DNA from: Myxococcota bacterium
GTDB taxonomy: Bacteria > Myxococcota_A > Polyangia > Nannocystales > Nannocystaceae
Reading direction: 5' to 3'
Assembly (NCBI GenBank): GCA_039028615.1
Contig: JBCCHT010000043.1
Location: forward strand, 1 to 64,000
Length of the DNA stretch: 64,000 bases
Shown: positions 27,490 to 44,290 of the stretch, piece by piece
Layout of the letters: every line of letters begins with the position of its first letter
Position numbering within the stretch: position 1 is the stretch's first letter
Notes under the pieces: generated by a model
Seen by the model: only the letters and a program-made list of their open reading frames with translations
Database searches by the model: none
What the model was told of the DNA's origin: nothing
Made by a program: the position numbers and the translations under genes

Positions 27490-28659
27490 ATGCCGATGCG
27501 AAGGATCGAGCTGGTCGTGGGGATGGGGCTTCTGCTGGGCCCCCTGGCGTACGCGCTCACCCTCGAGCCCCAGACGGAGACCGAGCTGGTGATCGTCCAC
27601 GAGGTCGCCCCGGCGCCCGAGGCCTTCCCGCAAAGCGAGACCATTCCCGTGCTCGAGCCCGCCGCCGAGGCCGAGCCCGCCGCGGCCGAGCCTGCGCCCG
27701 AGCCCATCCCCGAGGATGCGATCGCGTTCGCGTTCGTCAACGAAGCCGGCATCGTCCTCGATCCCGACGCTGACCCCTCGTGGGGCAAGGGTCGTCTGCG
27801 TGGCCACCCCGGCCCCGCCGAGTACCGAGCGGCCAAGCGAGCCGACGGCACCCGCGTGCCGGCCGAGCTGTGGGCGCAGCGGGGACGCACCTTCGACCTG
27901 TACGGACGCGAGGGCAAGCTGTGCACCGTCCGCATCGGGGACCTGTCCGTCCTCGCGCAGCACAACGGCCCCGATCTGTACGAAGTGTTCGCGGGCGACG
28001 GGGTCGACCCGATCGACTGGGACACCTTCGACCCCAAGAGCAAGAGCCGTCGCCAGATCCGCCATCAAGTCTGGCGCCACACCACCGACTTCAACCCCTG
28101 GCTGGTGGCCGAGCCCCTCGACGACGAGTCGTGCGAGGGCGCGCTGTGGGCCCGAGACAGCCGGCTCCCGGCGCCCGTCGTGCTCACGCGATCGATGGAC
28201 GCCAACGAGCATACCGGCCGCCGACTGGCCCAGTTCGCCACCTCGGAGGAGCTGGCCAGCAACAAGTCCAACTACGAGGAGTACTACGCCGAGCTCGATG
28301 AAGAGAGCCGCGAGTACTACGACGAGTGGGACAGCATCGCGGCCGAGCACGCCGCGAGCGCGTGGTCGTGGCGCGATGCCCAGGGCGTGACGCAGCTGGT
28401 CGAGATGACCTTCGGCGTCGACGAAGAGGGCTGCGGCGAGGGGTACTCCACCCTGATCACCAACGTGGACCGCGTCGTCGACGAGGCGTTCGTGCCCACG
28501 GAGCTCATGCCCAATGCCGTGACCGTCTTCGACGCCGACAACGATGGCCAGTGGGAAGCGCTCTACGACCACTCGTGGAACGGCGACGTCAACTATCTCG
28601 AGAGCGCGACTCTGGAGGCCGCCTGGGACATCCTTCGCGCCTACGAGTGCCCCTGCTGA
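27490..28659 (+). CDS. Hypothetical exported acidic protein ending in ECPC
   Basis: N-terminal hydrophobic segment, Pro/Glu linker, DADNDG motif. Confidence 0.75.
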   Translation: MPMRRIELVVGMGLLLGPLAYALTLEPQTETELVIVHEVAPAPEAFPQSETIPVLEPAAEAEPAAAEPAPEPIPEDAIAFAFVNEAGIVLDPDADPSWGKGRLRGHPGPAEYRAAKRADGTRVPAELWAQRGRTFDLYGREGKLCTVRIGDLSVLAQHNGPDLYEVFAGDGVDPIDWDTFDPKSKSRRQIRHQVWRHTTDFNPWLVAEPLDDESCEGALWARDSRLPAPVVLTRSMDANEHTGRRLAQFATSEELASNKSNYEEYYAELDEESREYYDEWDSIAAEHAASAWSWRDAQGVTQLVEMTFGVDEEGCGEGYSTLITNVDRVVDEAFVPTELMPNAVTVFDADNDGQWEALYDHSWNGDVNYLESATLEAAWDILRAYECPC

Positions 28660-28674
28660 AGAGCCGCCGCTCGG

Positions 28675-29253
28675 CTACTCGTGAAACTTCGAGGGGGCGG
28701 TGGCGGAGAGCACCGTGCCCTCGCGGCGGATCTGCGGTACGTCGATCGCCTGCTCGATGACGTGCTTGGCGATGACCGGCGCGACAGGGCGAATCTCGTC
28801 GTCGTACGACGCCCCGATCGCTGCGCCTCCCGCCCCGACCGCGGCCAGCAAGATCGCCGCGGCTCTCGCGCCTCGCCAGACTCGGCGCTCGACATGCAGC
28901 GACTGCTCGATGAGCGTGGGCTGAGCCAAGATCATCCGAGACGGTCGGGGTGTCCGCGTCGAGCGCCTGCGGCCACAGAGGCGCTCGACCTCGTGCACCA
29001 CCGCGCGCGGCGTCTCGAAACCCAAGATCTGGAAGTCCCCCTGGTGGTCGGGATCGATGCCGCGACGGAGCTTCTCCGCCAGGCCCGGCTCGATCTTCGG
29101 CACGCAGAGCACACGGAGCGTCGGCGGCCCCGGAGGTGCGCGTCGGACCCAACGACGGGCGCGACTGCCCAGCTCGACCCGCACCGAAAACCCCCGCGCA
29201 CGCAGCGAGTCCTCGACCGGCCCCAGCTGAGGCCCGAGGACCTCGGGCGCCAT
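28675..29253 (-). CDS. Hypothetical protein with one TM segment
   Basis: ORF 28675..29358; start chosen at MAPEV. Confidence 0.55.
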   Translation of the reverse strand: MAPEVLGPQLGPVEDSLRARGFSVRVELGSRARRWVRRAPPGPPTLRVLCVPKIEPGLAEKLRRGIDPDHQGDFQILGFETPRAVVHEVERLCGRRRSTRTPRPSRMILAQPTLIEQSLHVERRVWRGARAAAILLAAVGAGGAAIGASYDDEIRPVAPVIAKHVIEQAIDVPQIRREGTVLSATAPSKFHE

Positions 29254-29464
29254 CAGCAGCACACGGGACGGGCCTTCGACCTCGTTCGCACGCTCGCGAG
29301 CAGAAGCAGAGTACCGCCGTCGTGTGCTGTGAAGTGCCACCGCCTTCCGTGGTTCCACAGCTGCGGCGCAGCTCCAAAGAAACGGCGAGACGCGTCCCCT
29401 ACTGAACGTCGGCTCTCCCCACGACGGGCACCGCCCCTCGGGTCGCTTACGTCTTCAACGACGA

Positions 29465-29496
29465 GAGCCGACTCGCAGGGACATGCGAGTCGGCTC
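29465..29496. terminator. Perfect 13-bp hairpin immediately downstream of tRNA-Phe
   Basis: GAGCCGACTCGCA-gggaca-TGCGAGTCGGCTC. Confidence 0.65.
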
Positions 29497-29498
29497 GG

Positions 29499-29578
29499 TG
29501 GTGCCTCGGGACGGACTCGAACCGCCGACGCCCACAGGTTCAGTGTGGCGCTCTTGATTTCCACTGAGCTACCGAGGC
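29499..29578 (-). tRNA. tRNA-Phe(GAA), atypical (C37, 12-nt D-loop), CCA encoded
   Basis: GCCTCGG TA GCTC AGTGGAAATCAA GAGC G CCACA CTGAACC TGTGG GCGTC GGCGG TTCGAGT CCGTC CCGAGGC A CCA. Confidence 0.85.
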
Positions 29579-29660
29579 GAGTGTGACCGGGTGCGGCCCG
29601 ACCTCGTTCGTCAGGAACGAGAGCCGGGCGAGCCGAAACACTCGCCGCCACAACCATCAG

Positions 29661-29733
29661 TGCCAGGGGTGGGATTCGAACCCACGATCGTCGCTTCATG
29701 AGAGCGCTGCCTTGACCACTCGGCCACCCTGGC
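29661..29733 (-). tRNA. tRNA(CAT), probably elongator Met (Ile2 not excluded), atypical G37
   Basis: GCCAGGG TG GCC GAGTGGTCAA GGC A GCGCT CTCATGA AGCGA CGATC GTGGG TTCGAAT CCCAC CCCTGGC A. Confidence 0.87.
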
Positions 29734-29929
29734 AGAGGGGAGCGAGGCAGTGCGCATGAGTTCGTCGTGGGTCGTGATGCGTTGAAGTCGTAGAGTCATC
29801 GTTCGTTCTCTCGGGTGGTGCCGGGCCAACGAGGTGCCGGCCGGCGAACACGGAGCCATGACCCGTGAAGAGCCCCTTACGGGTGCTCGACCATCAATGA
29901 AATGACCAATGGAGTTGCACCCGAAACGC

Positions 29930-30007
29930 TCAACACGTGCCGAACATGAAGCCCATGCCGAACATTCGCTCGGTGTTCATGGGGGTCGTCGTCGTGAAGC
30001 GTTCCAT
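29930..30007 (-). CDS. Putative Met/Phe-rich leader peptide MERFTTTTPMNTERMFGMGFMFGTC
   Basis: Manual translation; AAGG RBS; 5 ATG and 4 TTC codons in 25; lies between the promoter and tRNA-Met/tRNA-Phe. Confidence 0.6.
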   Translation of the reverse strand: MERFTTTTPMNTERMFGMGFMFGTC

Positions 30008-30049
30008 GATGCAACCTTGGTTGCCCGTCGGTTCGACGGAGGTTCATTT

Positions 30050-30078
30050 TGTTTACGGCGCAGATCCGAGGTGGTCAA
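30050..30078 (-). promoter_or_regulatory. Sigma70-like promoter of the Met/Phe tRNA unit
   Basis: TTGACC-17 nt-TAAACA. Confidence 0.5.
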
Positions 30079-30217
30079 GCGATGAAATCGAAGAAAGTTT
30101 CGCCCACTCTGTCGCACCGCGGGACTCGAGCATTGACCCTTCGCACCACGCCAACTCAGCGAAGCCCGTCGACCGACGCAAAGCCACACCCCTTCCATCG
30201 TCGTCACGACACAGTCG

Positions 30218-30377
30218 CGACTCGACGCCCCTCGCCATCACGGCCAAACCACGACACGGCGCCCCTGGTCGTGACGATGAGGCTGCGACTCGACGGCCCC
30301 GCCGTGATGACGAACGCGGGACTCGACGGCCCTCGCTCCACGACCAGGCCACGCGACGCGACGGCCGGCGCGGCCAC
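30218..30377. repeat. Degenerate tandem repeat of about 34 bp, 4-5 units
   Basis: Units begin cgactcgacgccc, cgacacggcgccc, cgactcgacggcc, ggactcgacggcc and cgacgcgacggcc at 33-35 bp spacing. Confidence 0.45.
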
Positions 30378-30453
30378 TCCTTCGCTCGAGCGATGTGCTC
30401 GGTCCCCTCACGAGGACCGCTCGCGCTTTGTCCTTGAAGTCCTCCAATCGTGC

Positions 30454-30485
30454 ATTATTATGAGTGGGCGGTCACCCACAATAAT
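30454..30485. promoter_or_regulatory. Imperfect inverted repeat, probable TetR operator
   Basis: ATTATTATGAGTG-ggcggt-CACCCACAATAAT (11/13 match) just before the hydrolase-TetR operon. Confidence 0.6.
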
Positions 30486-30488
30486 CCA

Positions 30489-31349
30489 ATGGCGAAAATC
30501 AGCAGTCAATTCATCGAGGTAGAGGGCCTACGGCTCCATTGCCTGGTCGCTGGCGAGGCACTCGGGGATCCCGTCCTCCTCCTGCACGGGTGGCCCACCA
30601 ACGCTCAGCTGTGGCGGCACGTGCTCGCGCAGCTGGGTGAGCACCGCCGAGTCATCGCCCTCGATCTGCCCGGCTACGGCCTCTCCGACAAGCCGACCGA
30701 CGTCCGCTACTCGTTCCGGTTCTTCCAGAAGATCATCGACGGCACCCTCGACGCACTGCAGATCGACGAGCTGAGCCTTGGTGTGCACGACGCGGGCGGA
30801 CCCATCGGCATGTACTGGGCGGCCCACAACCAGCCGCGGGTCAGGTCGCTGGCGCTGCTCAACACGCTGGTCTTTCCCGAGATGTCCTGGGCGGTCAAGG
30901 CGTTCTTCCTCGCCCTTCGAACGCCCGGTCTGTCGCGCTTCATGACCAGTCCCCGCGGCATCGCCACCGCCATTCGTCTCGGCGTGGTCAACCGCGACAA
31001 GATCGACACCGAGGTGGCCGCCCTGTACCAAGCGCCCTACCGCGATCGCGAGTCTCGGGCGGCGCTCCTGCACGCAGCCAAGGGCCTCAGCCTCCGCGGC
31101 TTCCACACCATCGCCAAGGCCATCCCCGAGCTGAAGATCCCCGTGCGCATCATCTACGGCGAGATCGACCGCGCCCTCCCCGACGTCGCCAAGACCATGG
31201 CTCGGGTGCAGACGCTCGTGCCCCACGCCGAGCTCACCTCCTTGCCCAACATCGGCCACTTTCTGCAAGAAGACGCCCCCGAAGAGGTCGCGGCGCTGGT
31301 CACCGAGTTTTTCGCTCGCTCCGAGACTCGGGTGCGCCAGTCGGCGTAG
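30489..31349 (+). CDS. Alpha/beta hydrolase (haloalkane dehalogenase/epoxide hydrolase-like)
   Basis: LLHGWP, DLPGYGLSDKP, HDAGG nucleophile elbow and GHFLQED. Confidence 0.93.
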   Translation: MAKISSQFIEVEGLRLHCLVAGEALGDPVLLLHGWPTNAQLWRHVLAQLGEHRRVIALDLPGYGLSDKPTDVRYSFRFFQKIIDGTLDALQIDELSLGVHDAGGPIGMYWAAHNQPRVRSLALLNTLVFPEMSWAVKAFFLALRTPGLSRFMTSPRGIATAIRLGVVNRDKIDTEVAALYQAPYRDRESRAALLHAAKGLSLRGFHTIAKAIPELKIPVRIIYGEIDRALPDVAKTMARVQTLVPHAELTSLPNIGHFLQEDAPEEVAALVTEFFARSETRVRQSA

Positions 31350-31361
31350 GCTCCAATCGTC

Positions 31362-31961
31362 GTGCCGCGCATCTCGAAGGAAGAACGCAAGCTCGTACGG
31401 GCGCGCCTGCTCGACAGCGCCGCCCGGCACTTCGCCGAGCACGGCCTCGCCGGGGCCAACATCAACCGCATCTCGCTCGACGCCGGCTACGCCAAGGGCA
31501 CCATCTACAACTACTTCGCCTCGAAGGAAGAGCTGTTCGCCACGATCTTGCGCTCGGGCAGCGACGTCACCGTGCTGCGCTATCGCGAGCGCCAGGTCGA
31601 GGGCGACCTGCGAGTTCACCTGCTCGCGCTCGCCGAAGAGGACGTCGCCCTGGTCCAAAAGCACGAGCCCTTCATGCAGGTCATCGTGCGCGAGCTGCTG
31701 AGCACCCGACCCGCGACCCGCGAGCATCTCGATGCCGGGCTGCGTCCGCTGATGGAGGTCATCGTCGGGCTCATCGACGGTGCACGCCAGCGGGGGGAGC
31801 TGCGCACCGACCTCGAGACCCCGCAGCTGGCCACCCTGTTCGTGGGCCAAATGACGATGCTCTACGCCGAGCACTGGCGCAGCGACGGCGTCTGGCCCAC
31901 CTGGGAACAACTCCCGCAGCTGCTGGTCACCGTGTTCTTCGAAGGCATGAAGCCCCGCTGA
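31362..31961 (+). CDS. TetR/AcrR family transcriptional regulator
   Basis: FAEHG..INRISLDAGYAKGTIYNYFASKEELF. Confidence 0.95.
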   Translation: MPRISKEERKLVRARLLDSAARHFAEHGLAGANINRISLDAGYAKGTIYNYFASKEELFATILRSGSDVTVLRYRERQVEGDLRVHLLALAEEDVALVQKHEPFMQVIVRELLSTRPATREHLDAGLRPLMEVIVGLIDGARQRGELRTDLETPQLATLFVGQMTMLYAEHWRSDGVWPTWEQLPQLLVTVFFEGMKPR

Positions 31962-32020: not shown

Positions 32021-33115
32021 ATGGAGCTGTCGACCGCCCACGGGCCCCTGCCCGCCCCTTGCTACATCCCCGACGCGACCCGCGGGTTCGTGCGCTCCGT
32101 CGACGCCAGCGACCTCGAGGCGGTGGGCATCCCCGCGTTGATGATCAACGCGTACCACCTCATGACGCGGCCCGGCATTCGGGTAGTGCAACGGCTGGGT
32201 GGGCTGCATCGCTTCGCGGGATGGTCGGGGCCGATCGTCACCGACTCGGGCGGCTTTCAGGTGTTCTCGCTGATCCGGCAGAACCCCAAGCACGGACAGA
32301 TTCGCGACAACGAGATCGTCTTCCGCCCTCCCGACGGCAAGGACAAGCTCATCCTCACCCCCGAGAAGGTCGTGCAGACCCAGTTCCGGCTGGGCGCCGA
32401 CGTGATGGTCGCCCTCGACGACTGCACCGGACCCGAAGCGCCTGCCGACGAGCAGCGCCGGGCCGTCGATCGCACCGTGGCCTGGGCCCGACGCGCGCTC
32501 GTGGAGTTCAATCGTCAGCTTGCCCAGCGTCGCAGCAAAGACATTCCCCCGACCCTGGTCGCCCCGATTCAAGGCGGCAACGATCCCGCGCTACGACGAG
32601 ACTGCGCCAACGCCCTGCTCGATGCCGGCCTCACCACCTTTGGCTTCGGCGGCTGGCCCCTCGACGAGCACGGTGCGCTGCAGCTCGACATGTTCCAGGT
32701 GCTGCACGAGCTGCTGCCCATGACCACGCCTCTGTTCGCGCTGGGCGTGGGCAAGCCCGAGCACCTCACCGCCATCACGGCGCTGGGTCGACCCGCCGTG
32801 TTCGACAGCAGCCTGCCCACCCGCGATGCTCGACACCATCGCCTCTACCGCTTCCGCGACGCGCTGCCCGAGGGGCCGCTGACCTCGGGCCGAGACTTCT
32901 TCGAACGGCTGTACATCCTCGACAAGAAGCACGCGACCGCCGACGAGCCGATCTCGCCGCATTGCGATGCGTTGTGTTGTCGCCGCTATAGCCGGGGTTA
33001 TCTGCACCACCTGTTCAAGTGCGAAGACCCTCTGGCCAAGCGCCTGGCGACGCTGCACAACCTGCGCTTTTACACGCAGCTGGCGGCCCATCTGCAAGAG
33101 CACGGCGCTCGCTGA
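32021..33115 (+). CDS. tgt: tRNA-guanine transglycosylase family protein (divergent)
   Basis: NAYHL..RPG, TDSGGFQ, LDDC, IQGG, GVG, FDSSLPTRDARH and HNL. Confidence 0.9.
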   Translation: MELSTAHGPLPAPCYIPDATRGFVRSVDASDLEAVGIPALMINAYHLMTRPGIRVVQRLGGLHRFAGWSGPIVTDSGGFQVFSLIRQNPKHGQIRDNEIVFRPPDGKDKLILTPEKVVQTQFRLGADVMVALDDCTGPEAPADEQRRAVDRTVAWARRALVEFNRQLAQRRSKDIPPTLVAPIQGGNDPALRRDCANALLDAGLTTFGFGGWPLDEHGALQLDMFQVLHELLPMTTPLFALGVGKPEHLTAITALGRPAVFDSSLPTRDARHHRLYRFRDALPEGPLTSGRDFFERLYILDKKHATADEPISPHCDALCCRRYSRGYLHHLFKCEDPLAKRLATLHNLRFYTQLAAHLQEHGAR

Positions 33116-37443: not shown

Positions 37444-37520
37444 TGGTACCTGGGGAGGGATTCGAACCCCCAACCTCCCGGGTCTGAGCCGGTCGCCTCT
37501 ACCAATTGGGCTACCCAGGC
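37444..37520 (-). tRNA. tRNA-Leu(CAG), atypical: short variable loop, A37, G1.U72; CCA encoded
   Basis: GCCTGGG TA GCC CAATTGGTAGA GGC G ACCGG CTCAGAC CCGGG AGGTT GGGGG TTCGAAT CCCTC CCCAGGT A CCA. Confidence 0.87.
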
Positions 37521-37565
37521 ATAGGCGTTCCCATCGGGGAACGTGGACGACTTTTTTTCTGCCAG

Positions 37566-37639
37566 CGCGGCGTCGAGGATTCGAACCTCGGGCCTCCCGA
37601 TTCGTAGTCGGGTGCTCTATCCAGCTGAGCTAACGCCGC
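37566..37639 (-). tRNA. tRNA-Arg(ACG)
   Basis: GCGGCGT TA GCTC AGCTGGATA GAGC A CCCGA CTACGAA TCGGG AGGCC CGAGG TTCGAAT CCTCG ACGCCGC G. Confidence 0.95.
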
Positions 37640-37771: not shown

Positions 37772-37885
37772 TTACGCGACGCGAAGAAGGCGTCGACCAC
37801 CCACGCGCAGGCGCAAGCGCAGCCGACCGCCCAGCGTACGCTGGCTGTCTCGCCGCAAGCTCCGTGCCTGAACCTTCGTGGTCAT
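37772..37885 (-). CDS. Putative Arg/Leu-rich leader peptide MTTKVQARSLRRDSQRTLGGRLRLRLRVGGRRLLRVA
   Basis: Manual translation; 11 Arg and 7 Leu in 37 aa; hairpin 37754-37772 at the stop; upstream of tRNA-Arg/tRNA-Leu. In-frame ATGs also at 37906 and 37915. Confidence 0.55.
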   Translation of the reverse strand: MTTKVQARSLRRDSQRTLGGRLRLRLRVGGRRLLRVA

Positions 37886-42559: not shown

Positions 42560-44290
42560 CTACTTGGGGGCGTCCACCAAGCGGAACAGCGGGTTGACGG
42601 TCAGTTCGACCATGAGTGCTTTGTAGTTGTAGTCGGTCTCGGAGAAGCTCTCGTCCAGGGTGGCGATGCCGGCGGCCTGGTCGAGGCCGGGGTCGTGGCC
42701 CAGCGTGCTGCGGTAGAGATTCCGAACGACGCAGTTCGGAACCCGCGGGTCGTTGCGGATGAGCCCGGCGAGGTCGGCCGCGCCGCCGAAGCTACCCACG
42801 CCGCCCACCTCACCCGAGGAGTCGATGGGAAGCCCGTTGTCGAGCTGTCGGAAGGCACCGATCGCACTGTAGCGCTCGAACGCGAAGCCGATGGGATCCA
42901 TGAGCGCATGGCAGGCCGCACAGCTGTCGTCCTGGTTGTGCTCGTTCTCCAGCCACTCGCGCAGGGTCTGGCCCTCCATCGGTGCCGGCGGCATGACCTC
43001 CACATCGGGCGGCGGCGGCAGGATGTCGGTGCACAGCAGCGTCTCCTGCACGAAGAGCCCGCGTCGCGTGGGCGAGTTGATGTCGGGGTGAGAGAAGACG
43101 CTGAGGAACGCGGGGTGCGTCAGGAAGCCCGCGCGCTGCTGGCCTTCGGGGAAGGACACGAGCTGCCACGGGAACTCGGGTGGATCCATCCCGTACAGCT
43201 GAGCGAGGTCGTCGTTCACGAACGTGTAGTTCGCGTCGAAGATGCCCAGGAAGTTGCTCTCCTCTTCGAAGACCACGTTCTGGATGAGCAAGAGCGTCTC
43301 TTGCCGCATCGCCGCCGCGAGGTCGGGGTTGAAGGTGGGGAACAGCTCGGCGTCCTTGCCCTTGTTCTCCAGCTCGCGGAGCTTGTAAAGCTCGTCGTAG
43401 AACTCGGCGAGACGGGTGCGGGCTTCCGGCCGCGTGAGCATGTCTTCGGCGACCGCCCGAATTTGGCCGTCCTCCGACAGCTGCCCCGACTCGGCCGTGT
43501 CCAGCGTCCCCCCGTCGGGCGTATGACCCAGCAGGAAGAACGACAGGCGCGACGCCATCTCGTAGTCGGTGAGAACGCGGTGCTCTCCGTCTTCGGTCTC
43601 CTCGCCAACCTCCACCACATACAGGAAGTTGGGCGACTGGAAGATGGTGCCCACGAGGTACTTGATACCGGTGAGGAAGTCGTTGCCTCCCCATTCGTAG
43701 GCGGCGTTGGCGATCTCGACGACGTCGGCGATCTCCTCGTCGGTCAGCGGTCGACGCCACGCCATGCGCCCCAGCTCGGCGGCGACCGTGTCGTAGCAGG
43801 AGGGGTCCTGACCATCTGCCACGCAAGGCACGAGGGCGTTGAGCGAGGCCGGCTCGTTCATCACCGCGGTACCCATCGCCAGCGCCGAACTCTCGTACAG
43901 CTCGATGTCGATGGGCGTCAGCGGCTCCTCGTTGACGGTCTGCGAGTCGAAAGTGCCCAGCTCGGGCAGCGGAGGCGGGTTGGCGGCTTCGGCAACCTCG
44001 GCTCCGAGGATGACCTCTACGCTCGCGACGTACTGATCGGGTGTCAGGCGACGAATGCCGCCCGGTGGCGGGAGCACATTCGCGTCGCCCCCCGTGTTGG
44101 TACCGTCGGTTCCGGTCTCGTCTGCCGTGCCATCGACACCGTCGGTCCCCCCCGCGGTGCCGGTCCCGCTTTCGGTGCCACCTGCTCCTCCCCCGCCGTC
44201 ATCACCACAACCAGTGGCAGGTACGGCTAGCGCGAGGAGACATAACGGCAGAGTCAGTATGTGACTGGAACGGAGCGGAAGCGTTTTCAT
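42560..44290 (-). CDS. DUF1592/DUF1588-type lipoprotein with CxxCH
   Basis: IRRLT..Y, QSPNFLY, YEMASRLSFFL, SPTRRG and CAACHALMDPIGFAFE. Confidence 0.9.
   Translation of the reverse strand: MKTLPLRSSHILTLPLCLLALAVPATGCGDDGGGGAGGTESGTGTAGGTDGVDGTADETGTDGTNTGGDANVLPPPGGIRRLTPDQYVASVEVILGAEVAEAANPPPLPELGTFDSQTVNEEPLTPIDIELYESSALAMGTAVMNEPASLNALVPCVADGQDPSCYDTVAAELGRMAWRRPLTDEEIADVVEIANAAYEWGGNDFLTGIKYLVGTIFQSPNFLYVVEVGEETEDGEHRVLTDYEMASRLSFFLLGHTPDGGTLDTAESGQLSEDGQIRAVAEDMLTRPEARTRLAEFYDELYKLRELENKGKDAELFPTFNPDLAAAMRQETLLLIQNVVFEEESNFLGIFDANYTFVNDDLAQLYGMDPPEFPWQLVSFPEGQQRAGFLTHPAFLSVFSHPDINSPTRRGLFVQETLLCTDILPPPPDVEVMPPAPMEGQTLREWLENEHNQDDSCAACHALMDPIGFAFERYSAIGAFRQLDNGLPIDSSGEVGGVGSFGGAADLAGLIRNDPRVPNCVVRNLYRSTLGHDPGLDQAAGIATLDESFSETDYNYKALMVELTVNPLFRLVDAPK

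Follow-up and report, generated by a model that had tools for sequence, protein, structure and literature searches.

A stretch of 64,000 nucleotides (nt) from a Myxococcota bacterium of the Nannocystaceae (assembly GCA_039028615.1, contig JBCCHT010000043.1, positions 1 to 64,000; hereafter the window) carries a short open reading frame (ORF) followed by one tRNA-Met and one tRNA-Phe gene. The three were analysed together as a putative leader and its operon. All coordinates are positions in the window, and the leader and both tRNA genes lie on the minus strand. The ORF (30007..29930) has 25 codons plus TGA and encodes the peptide MERFTTTTPMNTERMFGMGFMFGTC; it reads ATG GAA CGC TTC ACG ACG ACG ACC CCC ATG AAC ACC GAG CGA ATG TTC GGC ATG GGC TTC ATG TTC GGC ACG TGT TGA. 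The tRNA-Met(CAU) gene (29660..29733, Rfam tRNA model 66.3 bits) starts 196 nt downstream of the ORF and is a spare, elongator-type copy with the anticodon loop CUCAUGA (G37). It is followed by a spare tRNA-Phe(GAA) gene (29499..29578, Rfam tRNA model 52 bits) of 80 nt with an insertion in the D-loop, the anticodon loop CUGAACC and an encoded CCA. A hairpin with a 13-bp stem followed by UCGUCGUUG (29465..29496), found as a self-complementary BLAST hit, closes the operon. Between the leader and this hairpin the two tRNA genes are the only genes, and enzymes for amino-acid biosynthesis, transport or charging are absent from the interval. The genome is an uncultured assembly, and all functional statements made here are based on comparative sequence analysis and thermodynamic folding.

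An earlier, sequence-only reading of this DNA had singled out the ORF as a Met/Phe-rich leader, preceded by a ribosome-binding site and a promoter, upstream of same-strand tRNA genes with the matching anticodons. Each of these elements is in place. Nine of the 25 codons are ATG (five) or TTC (four), and six of the nine fall within an 8-codon patch at codons 15-22; a Shine-Dalgarno-like AAGG (30018..30015) stands 7 nt before the ATG, and the hexamers TTGACC and TAAACA, 17 nt apart, span 30078..30050. The same reading had considered it unlikely that such codons cluster by chance, a probability that it had left uncomputed. Using amino-acid frequencies from 2712 long ORFs of high third-position GC content as background (genome size 12.27 Mb, 68% GC), Met or Phe was found to account for 8 of the 24 residues after Met1 where 1.2 are expected (binomial p = 1.3e-5). 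At the genome-wide level, 8-codon windows with at least six ATG, TTC or TTT codons occur at 30 places among 24.5 million windows in six frames, and most of these are runs of TTC. By our own arithmetic, about 4e-4 such patches are expected on the right strand in the 300 nt that precede the genome's sole Met-Phe tRNA pair.

When the locus was compared by plain BLAST with 41 related genomes, nothing but the tRNAs aligned, and homology of the leader became visible upon reading the DNA upstream of them. In four genomes of the same genus, and likewise on contig C23 of the source genome, the tRNAs are preceded by the same promoter and by a 31-codon ORF (MKRTTT...NFGSC) with the same sequence after its stop codon. 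Two covariance models were built, one (R1) of the ORF region and a second (R2), which match the window leader with 61.3 and 58.9 bits, respectively. R1 gave matches at 29 places, spread over 22 of the 73 genomes of the bacterial family (Nannocystaceae level) and 8 of its 17 genera. R2 matched 21 of 51 genomes with at least 85% completeness, and four places in the source genome. In a class-wide sample R2 matched 8 of 22 genomes within the bacterial family and 1 of 128 outside it; this sole outside match (L060) is the N-terminus of a long ORF. At 28 of the 29 R1 places an ORF starts at the same model position and is followed by tRNA genes on the same strand. The remaining place (L040, E = 0.0076) was dropped as a probable false positive as it has neither an ORF nor a tRNA. 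These 28 loci and nine further ones constitute the set of 37 loci used below, in which weak matches such as L045 were kept where both ORF and tRNAs were present. Three metagenomic stretches, two of them distinct, extend the leader family beyond the 37 genomic loci. One metagenome contig (L069, 1..2700) holds an island of 16 tRNAs in the order Pro-Pro-Leu-Leu-Leu-Arg, then Gln-Gln, then the family leader MKRTTTSETTTTIAVAMWSFAAHKGSDIVAC, then Thr-Asp-Ala-Trp-Cys-Val-Ile-Met, from which it follows that tRNA sub-arrays can adjoin one another.

The leader ORF precedes a tRNA gene or array at 36 of the 37 loci, the number of tRNAs ranging from 1 to 11. Its start codon, at a conserved model position, is ATG in 35 loci and GTG in two; the stop codon is TGA throughout and is part of TGAG in 35. 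Between these anchors the ORF comes in 16 distinct lengths, the shortest of 24 and the longest of 61 codons, and stays in frame in every one. As the anchors are fixed by RNA pairing, the preservation of frame across 16 lengths argues for a frame that is read by ribosomes. The encoded peptides share the N-terminal motif M-K/N/E-R-S/T/F-T and, in 33 of 37, a Cys before the stop; their middle parts show no sequence conservation, and composition alone tracks the tRNAs downstream. The window leader, for instance, has its first six residues in common with leaders of Lys-Asn arrays, yet contains no Lys and has four extra Met and four Phe. An overlapping His-rich frame of 56 amino acids (30047..29877), which the sequence-only reading had flagged as the competitor of its proposed sensor peptide, does exist in the window; conservation across the 37 loci was found to follow the Met/Phe frame and not the His-rich one, which supports the sensor proposal. 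Judged by this comparison, the ORF belongs to a conserved leader family and is not a chance frame.

The composition of the leaders changes with the tRNAs that they precede. MNRSTTDSHHHMRDHVVFVHSMHDICPC stands before an Asp-Asp-His array, MIRSTTVTTTTTITTTVVVRGIIVC before Thr-Val-Ile-Met, MKRTHTARFSRPTAIVVVTVITDVIDDTHVC before Thr-Thr-Asp-Asp-Val-Ile-Ile-Val-Val-His and MERFTTQKRTAAKPALVRMVAPTKGRNMGAC before Lys-Asn, and in the source genome MERFTNISTPASAQAAALWSLVRLAGEIVAC (contig C27) precedes Ser-Ala-Trp-Cys-Val-Ile-Ser. An independent parallel to the window is found in another genus, where MIRFTNMMYMYTPGARFMCVMAPC precedes Met-Met-Phe-Met-Phe-Met, and the metagenomic leader MKRFTTQPRTTTAMVAMWMFTAKMCRNFGSC precedes Thr-Met-Phe. 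Enrichment for residues of the own array was detected at binomial p<0.01 in 24 of the 36 loci with a downstream tRNA. The match was evaluated further by permutation on 17 leaders picked by eye as non-redundant, 11 close relatives among the first 28 being dropped. The summed Z was 69.1 as compared to 28.5 +/- 6.0 (maximum 53.5) when arrays were swapped among the 17 loci, and none of 20000 permutations reached the observed value. Removal of the first six residues and the last residue left this result unchanged. In the same 17 leaders cognate residues made up 229 of 520 (44%) in the ORF frame, against 51 of 493 (10%) in the +1 frame and 67 of 492 (14%) in the +2 frame; one antisense frame reached 33%, which codon complementarity among Val, Asp and His would lead one to expect. 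The frequency of Phe was 0.093 in leaders with a Phe tRNA downstream and 0.014 in those without, and that of Met 0.064 and 0.020, respectively. There is in addition a hint of a match at the level of codons, in that ACA, which accounts for 1% of genomic Thr codons, makes up 3/4, 2/3, 1/3 and 1/3 of the Thr codons in leaders whose sole downstream tRNA is tRNA-Thr(UGU). As a separate observation, long tandem repeats with a unit of ~7 nt (TAGTTGG-like) start a few bases after the last tRNA-Asp at six loci in other genomes (L026, L027, L032, L035, L039 and L055), which are Thr/Asp-type arrays whose long leaders are without codon enrichment.

Four segments of the leader transcript can pair in alternative ways. 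Segment A (GGUUGCAUCAUGGAACGC, 29999..30016) covers the start-codon region and is the partner of segment B (UGAGCGUUUCGGGUGCAACU, 29913..29932), which consists of the stop codon and the next 17 nt and may instead pair with C/D. Segment C (GAGCACCCG, 29880..29888) pairs either with B, through CGGGUGC, or with segment D (GGGGCUC, 29870..29876); the latter pairing yields a hairpin of -12.1 kcal/mol that has a GUAA cap and UUCAC directly after it. A small hairpin in the loop between B and C (29891..29912) was seen in free and masked folds alike. The A:B helix was recognised by RNAalifold on a MAFFT alignment of six leaders, where GRAACGC of the start region pairs with GCGUUYC after the stop and the stretch next to the Shine-Dalgarno-like element pairs with the next eight bases, both with compensatory changes. 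In a model-fitted alignment of 28 leaders, which is biased towards its own structure, 88.5% of cells pair, a share that falls to 36-42% on sliding, and in 25 of the 35 pairs both partners have changed. The B:C helix was assessed on an unfitted MAFFT alignment of 30 loci, in which 80% of cells pair (85% within the 10-bp core) and sliding lowers the share to 39-57%. Independent of any alignment, mean duplex energies were lower for cognate than for swapped partners in the case of both A:B (-17.2 vs -12.9 kcal/mol) and B:C (-24.3 vs -20.5 kcal/mol), with 0 of 5000 permutations as extreme for either. A:B and B:C are thus, as far as alignments and predicted energies tell, mutually exclusive co-evolving helices that share segment B, and B begins at the stop codon.

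For the window the minimum free energy fold of the free leader contains A:B (duplex -22.7 kcal/mol) together with the C:D hairpin (-12.1 kcal/mol), and the alternative B:C duplex has -27.4 kcal/mol. When 16 nt from the stop codon were masked the C:D hairpin formed in the window, and C re-paired downstream in 27 of the 37 loci compared to 202 of 740 shuffles. C:D was also considered as a terminator helix of the entire leader family; this found no support in two tests, one of pairing at fixed columns and one of co-evolution. From segment D to tRNA-Met extends a C-rich, G-poor spacer (29734..29869; 39% C, 24% G) of a composition that would suit Rho. In the family C exceeds G, by raw count, in the spacer after the leader at 29 of 34 loci. 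The last ~35-40 nt of the spacer are a box conserved upstream of tRNA-Met, where BLAST matches to genomes of the same genus start. As a side observation, a (G)ACACG motif follows the post-stop hairpin in most members of the leader family (alignment columns 81-86; UUCACG at 29864..29869 in the window) and is, in many loci, complementary to GCGUGU at the top of segment B.

The ORF is, in our reading, the leader peptide of a ribosome-mediated attenuator of the trp style that controls the spare tRNA-Met/tRNA-Phe operon and in which a stall leads to read-through, a proposal to which we give somewhat better than even confidence. Transcription would start at the TTGACC/TAAACA promoter and a ribosome would load on the nascent leader, its position then setting the folding of the post-stop segment B. 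With no ribosome on the leader B would pair with A, thereby closing off the ORF and leaving C unpaired, and a ribosome on the stop codon would cover B and likewise leave C unpaired. If on the other hand the ribosome were stalled on the ATG and TTC codons of the patch at codons 15-22, which lie 12-33 nt before the stop, B would be free to pair with C. B:C would act as the anti-terminating form, such that slow decoding of Met or Phe codons would allow RNA polymerase to continue into the tRNA genes. Smooth decoding would leave C free, and either the C:D hairpin or the exposed C-rich spacer would bring transcription to a stop. We infer translation of the ORF, transcription read-through as the output, and the polarity of the switch from sequence. 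The parts of the proposal differ in their strength: that the ORF is a translated, codon-matched sensor of one polarity or the other is considered likely, and given such a sensor, stalling that turns the tRNAs on is judged the rather more probable direction. Read-through upon stalling is favoured because of the analogy to attenuators of the trp type, the large branched shape of B:C and the greater plausibility of divergent spare tRNAs being kept off until needed.

Several observations weigh against this proposal. The Met/Phe patch holds a 9-nt direct repeat, with ATGTTCGGC occurring twice, meaning that its codons are not all independent and that part of the enrichment may stem from a single duplication event; when one copy is discounted Met and Phe amount to 6 of 21 residues, which is still about six-fold over background. 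Twelve of the 36 loci with a downstream tRNA lack clear enrichment at p<0.01 (L023 0.044, L046 0.010, L043 0.09 and nine with p>0.2), and the last nine are leaders of 29-61 codons in front of Thr/Asp, Asp or single tRNA-Thr arrays. The conserved ends of the peptide may reflect RNA pairing and not coding, and the interior of the ORF forms co-varying hairpins as well, so that constraints on RNA and coding are entangled. As a terminator, the C:D hairpin of the window is weak, having -12.1 kcal/mol and being followed by UUCAC. Across the family alignment 48.6% of cells pair when C:D is tested at fixed columns, which does not exceed the shuffles, cognate C:D duplexes (mean -15.5 kcal/mol) are no more stable than swapped ones (-15.7 kcal/mol; 2966 of 5000 permutations), and U-tracts are mostly absent. 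In addition, simple masking of the RNA by a stalled ribosome leaves A:B still possible in the thermodynamic fold.

The same sensor could operate with opposite polarity. B:C would then itself be the stop signal, a stall at Met or Phe codons would let it form and shut the spare tRNAs off, and its formation would be prevented by A:B, or by a ribosome that has reached the stop codon. The whole would amount to a private, codon-specific stringent control. This is thought unlikely but is a serious rival, as only A:B and B:C co-evolve and C:D does not, B:C is on average the more stable of the two helices (-24.3 vs -17.2 kcal/mol), and the hairpins at the ends of the tRNA arrays of the leader family are themselves often without clear U-tracts, such that terminators free of U-tracts may be normal in this lineage. 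B:C encloses, however, loops of 25-45 nt with sub-hairpins. Large loops bearing sub-hairpins are typical of antiterminators and not of intrinsic terminators. The neat tetraloop-capped C:D hairpin in the genus of the window and the downstream re-pairing of C once B is masked (27 of 37 loci vs 202 of 740 shuffles) likewise speak against B:C as the stop signal, and divergent spare tRNAs that are on by default would seem harder to rationalise than ones that are kept off.

Three further readings were considered. If the leader were a structured non-coding 5' element, acting for instance in processing or stability of the tRNA precursor, the open frame would be incidental. The 35 covariation-supported base pairs that span the whole ORF, the overlap of the conserved first and last codons with paired segments and the frequency of short open frames in GC-rich DNA with its few stop codons all count in favour of such an element. 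The tRNA match is, however, confined to one of the three sense frames (44% vs 10-14%, one antisense frame reaching 33%), it follows the make-up of the array from locus to locus (0 of 20000 permutations), and all 16 length variants are in frame with start, Shine-Dalgarno-like element and stop conserved, for which reason a non-coding leader is regarded as improbable. Somewhat less credit still is given to the peptide being the product in its own right, be it a small protein, the precursor of a modified peptide or a leader peptide acting in trans, with the adjacency to tRNAs being secondary. The conserved N-terminal motif M-K/N/E-R-S/T/F-T and C-terminal Cys (33 of 37) would fit this, and trans-acting leader peptides have precedent in other bacteria (PMC7298713). 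Against it stand the unconserved middle of the peptide, in which composition alone follows the tRNAs, and the neighbouring genes, which are unrelated chromosomal genes with no conserved partner; such a product would moreover be compatible with a sensor role. That the His-rich frame is the real ORF, or the Met/Phe ORF a chance frame, is hardly credible. In the window the His-rich frame runs open through 56 codons, but its ATG lies beside the -10 element and is not conserved across homologues, agreement with the arrays is as low as 10% in the +1 frame and 14% in the +2 frame, and the operon has no tRNA-His, while a Met/Phe patch at this place has an expected number of about 4e-4.

The proposed attenuator can be compared with known systems. 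Leader-peptide transcription attenuators govern amino-acid operons of the trp, his, leu and pheA type. As in these, the window has a promoter-proximal short ORF with regulatory codons whose stop lies directly next to a segment with two alternative pairing partners, and the 1:2, 2:3 and 3:4 pairings of the trp type correspond to A:B, B:C and C:D. It differs from them in that the targets are tRNAs rather than biosynthetic enzymes, which makes the signal (slow decoding) and the output (the decoder) the same class of molecule, and in that segment A lies on the start codon, the whole ORF is inside the A:B loop and a hairpin with a U-tract was not found. Among the features of attenuators seen in sequence here are a leader ORF with a Shine-Dalgarno-like site, enrichment of cognate codons, a conserved frame and mutually exclusive pairings. 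The thr and ilv operons have multivalent leaders. In a similar manner single leaders of the present family mix several amino acids (Thr/Val/Ile/Met, Lys/Asn/Phe/Met, and Met/Phe here), but unlike in thr and ilv the codon mix mirrors the downstream tRNA set and changes with it from locus to locus. The pheST leader is a Phe-codon attenuator of the phenylalanyl-tRNA synthetase operon. It resembles the window leader in controlling a component of the translation apparatus by way of Phe codons, but the component is a synthetase and not a tRNA, and the sequence family is different. The attenuators of tna, mgtA and mgtCBR have leader ORFs and depend on Rho. The window shares with them a leader ORF and alternative stem-loops in front of a C-rich, G-poor stretch (39% C, 24% G), a candidate rut region, and is set apart by tRNA genes as targets. 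T-box riboswitches bind tRNA directly and without translation. A 5' leader that senses tRNA status in cis would be common to both, but apart from the two tRNAs and some weak matches of no relevance, a scan with Rfam models (cmscan, E up to 5) of 28500..31500 gave nothing, and in particular no T-box, and the frame-specific signal of the ORF points to the ribosome as the reader and not to tRNA binding of the T-box kind. A general description of leader-peptide attenuation is given in PMC1183508.

A literature search, from whose coverage subscription journals were mostly excluded, gave no account of a leader peptide or upstream ORF controlling tRNA genes or arrays. Leader-peptide attenuation is textbook knowledge for amino-acid operons, and tRNA genes are thought to be controlled mainly at their promoters, by growth rate and the stringent response. 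The proposed mechanism is a variant of leader-peptide attenuation that is new in its target, tRNA genes instead of enzymes. If true, it would provide direct feedback from decoding speed to tRNA supply that is specific for each group of tRNAs, and would explain both what the puzzling spare tRNA arrays in large genomes are for and how they are regulated. The composition of a leader would then predict which tRNAs its array supplies. The 37 genomic and three metagenomic loci can be viewed as natural 'codon-swap' variants of one scaffold, which makes the comparative evidence for a sensor unusually strong.

The source genome has 86 predicted tRNAs, among them a canonical elongator tRNA-Met, an initiator, a third CAU tRNA and a canonical tRNA-Phe; the housekeeping CAU tRNAs are located on contigs C37, C29 and C2 and the housekeeping tRNA-Phe on C21. 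The tRNA-Met and tRNA-Phe of the window are divergent extra copies of these, and as clustered, same-strand genes for duplicated isoacceptors they have the characteristics of a spare array. The anticodon loops of array tRNAs differ from those of the housekeeping copies (G37 in Met, G37 or C37 in Phe). Array Met tRNAs from two genera retain the loop CUCAUGA with G37, the window tRNA-Phe has a paralogue of 80% identity in the C23 array, and it carries a compensatory A-U pair at the base of its anticodon stem. These features of loop and stem suggest selection on function rather than decay. Spare tRNA arrays of phages and some bacteria are comparable as extra clusters whose anticodon loops are unlike those of housekeeping copies, but the arrays described here are chromosomal, DNA similarity to phage records was not found at the locus, and Pfam searches of 17 neighbouring ORFs returned ordinary chromosomal genes and no phage genes. 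Phage tRNAs have been proposed to escape anticodon nucleases through changes in the anticodon loop (PMC10264068), and a codon-matched leader is not mentioned in the available part of that article.

Cognate-rich short ORFs, either leaders or leader candidates, precede seven arrays of the source genome and together cover 17 amino acids. Four of these arrays have leaders matched by the models, namely Thr-Phe-Asn-Lys-Lys on C23, Asp-His and Ser-Ala-Trp-Cys-Val-Ile-Ser on C27, and Met-Phe in the window. The other three (Ser x4-Tyr on C3, Cys-Gln on C9 and Arg-Leu in the window) have candidates of other sequence families; as the screen takes the best short ORF per region and gave obvious false positives inside genes, these three candidates need extra features in their support. 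Such an ORF was not found in front of the canonical Thr-Tyr-Gly-Thr, Gln-Glu and Glu-Lys clusters of the genome. Taken together, these arrays might constitute an on-demand backup, that is, a second, nearly complete and divergent tRNA set distributed over small operons, each behind a codon-matched leader and made only when its codons are decoded slowly. We put this forward as a tentative idea, doubtful as it stands. Such a set could guard against loss of the primary tRNAs, through anticodon nucleases of competitors or phages or through failed modification of position 37, and not against amino-acid starvation.

In the candidate leader for the Arg-Leu array of the window, MTTKVQARSLRRDSQRTLGGRLRLRLRVGGRRLLRVA (37772..37885, minus strand), 11 of the 36 codons that follow Met1 specify Arg and 7 specify Leu. 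A T-run and TTGACG lie upstream of it, a hairpin follows right after its stop codon, and 132 nt separate it from tRNA-Arg(ACG) (37565..37639, minus strand), which is followed by tRNA-Leu(CAG) (37444..37520, minus strand). A 37-codon homologue in a genome of the same genus stands in front of three tRNA-Arg and three tRNA-Leu genes. Neither R1 nor R2 matches MTTKVQARSLRRDSQRTLGGRLRLRLRVGGRRLLRVA, which consequently belongs to a different sequence family. On C3 (258280-258723) the candidate leader MVAHESLAHVFEFCHATAYDSSSSYAYVLGSRSSSRC contains AGT TCG TCT TCG TAT, in which the Ser codons are rare ones, and is followed by Ser(GCU)-Ser(GGA)-Ser(UGA)-Ser(CGA)-Tyr, and on C9 (257702-257854) MLRFPTELSTNAVCTAGVVVLIGCQQQCACVCG precedes Cys-Gln. 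Some array tRNAs with Leu or Ser anticodons, including the window tRNA-Leu and others at C27:171191-172216, are 73-77 nt long and without the long variable arm expected of these isotypes. In other genomes the array CAU tRNAs of L028, L034, L044, L045 and L057 resemble the initiator (5' end TGCGGGG, loop CTCATAA) and not the elongator. A further tRNA in the window, an 86-nt tRNA-Ala(AGC) with its anticodon at position 32 (42671..42756, plus strand), is a doubtful ARAGORN call, and a leader was not found there.

The promoter of the Met-Phe operon is conserved together with its leader. The -35 hexamer TTGACC (30073..30078) and the -10 hexamer TAAACA (30050..30055) were read from sequence; relatives have TAAACC, TAGACC or TACACC at the place aligned to the latter, and 29 of the 37 homologous loci have TTGAC at a distance of 55-85 nt ahead of the leader start. 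A scan for consensus promoters and terminators did not call this promoter because TAAACA is without the T demanded at position 6, and its sole terminator-like match was a stem-loop read on the plus strand. In the leader transcript this stem-loop (CCGTCG-AAC-CGACGG, an inverted repeat at 30025..30039) lies near the 5' end, and in relatives its position is taken by a different stem, with a TTCG loop. An A/T-rich stretch, AAACTTTCTTCGATTTCATC (30081..30100), which borders the -35 hexamer on the upstream side, is read as a putative UP element, and homologous loci have runs of T or A there. In place of AAGG (30015..30018) the homologues have purine-rich GGAAC, GAGATC or GAGGTC at the same distance from the start codon. 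The neighbouring genes, according to Pfam matches of the 17 ORFs, include a hydrolase, a TetR regulator, a queuine tRNA-ribosyltransferase (TGT) and a two-component system, with no partner conserved among loci. The TGT gene (32021..33115, plus strand; Pfam E = 4e-84) is located 2 kb from the leader, and the alpha/beta hydrolase and the TetR regulator lie between the two.

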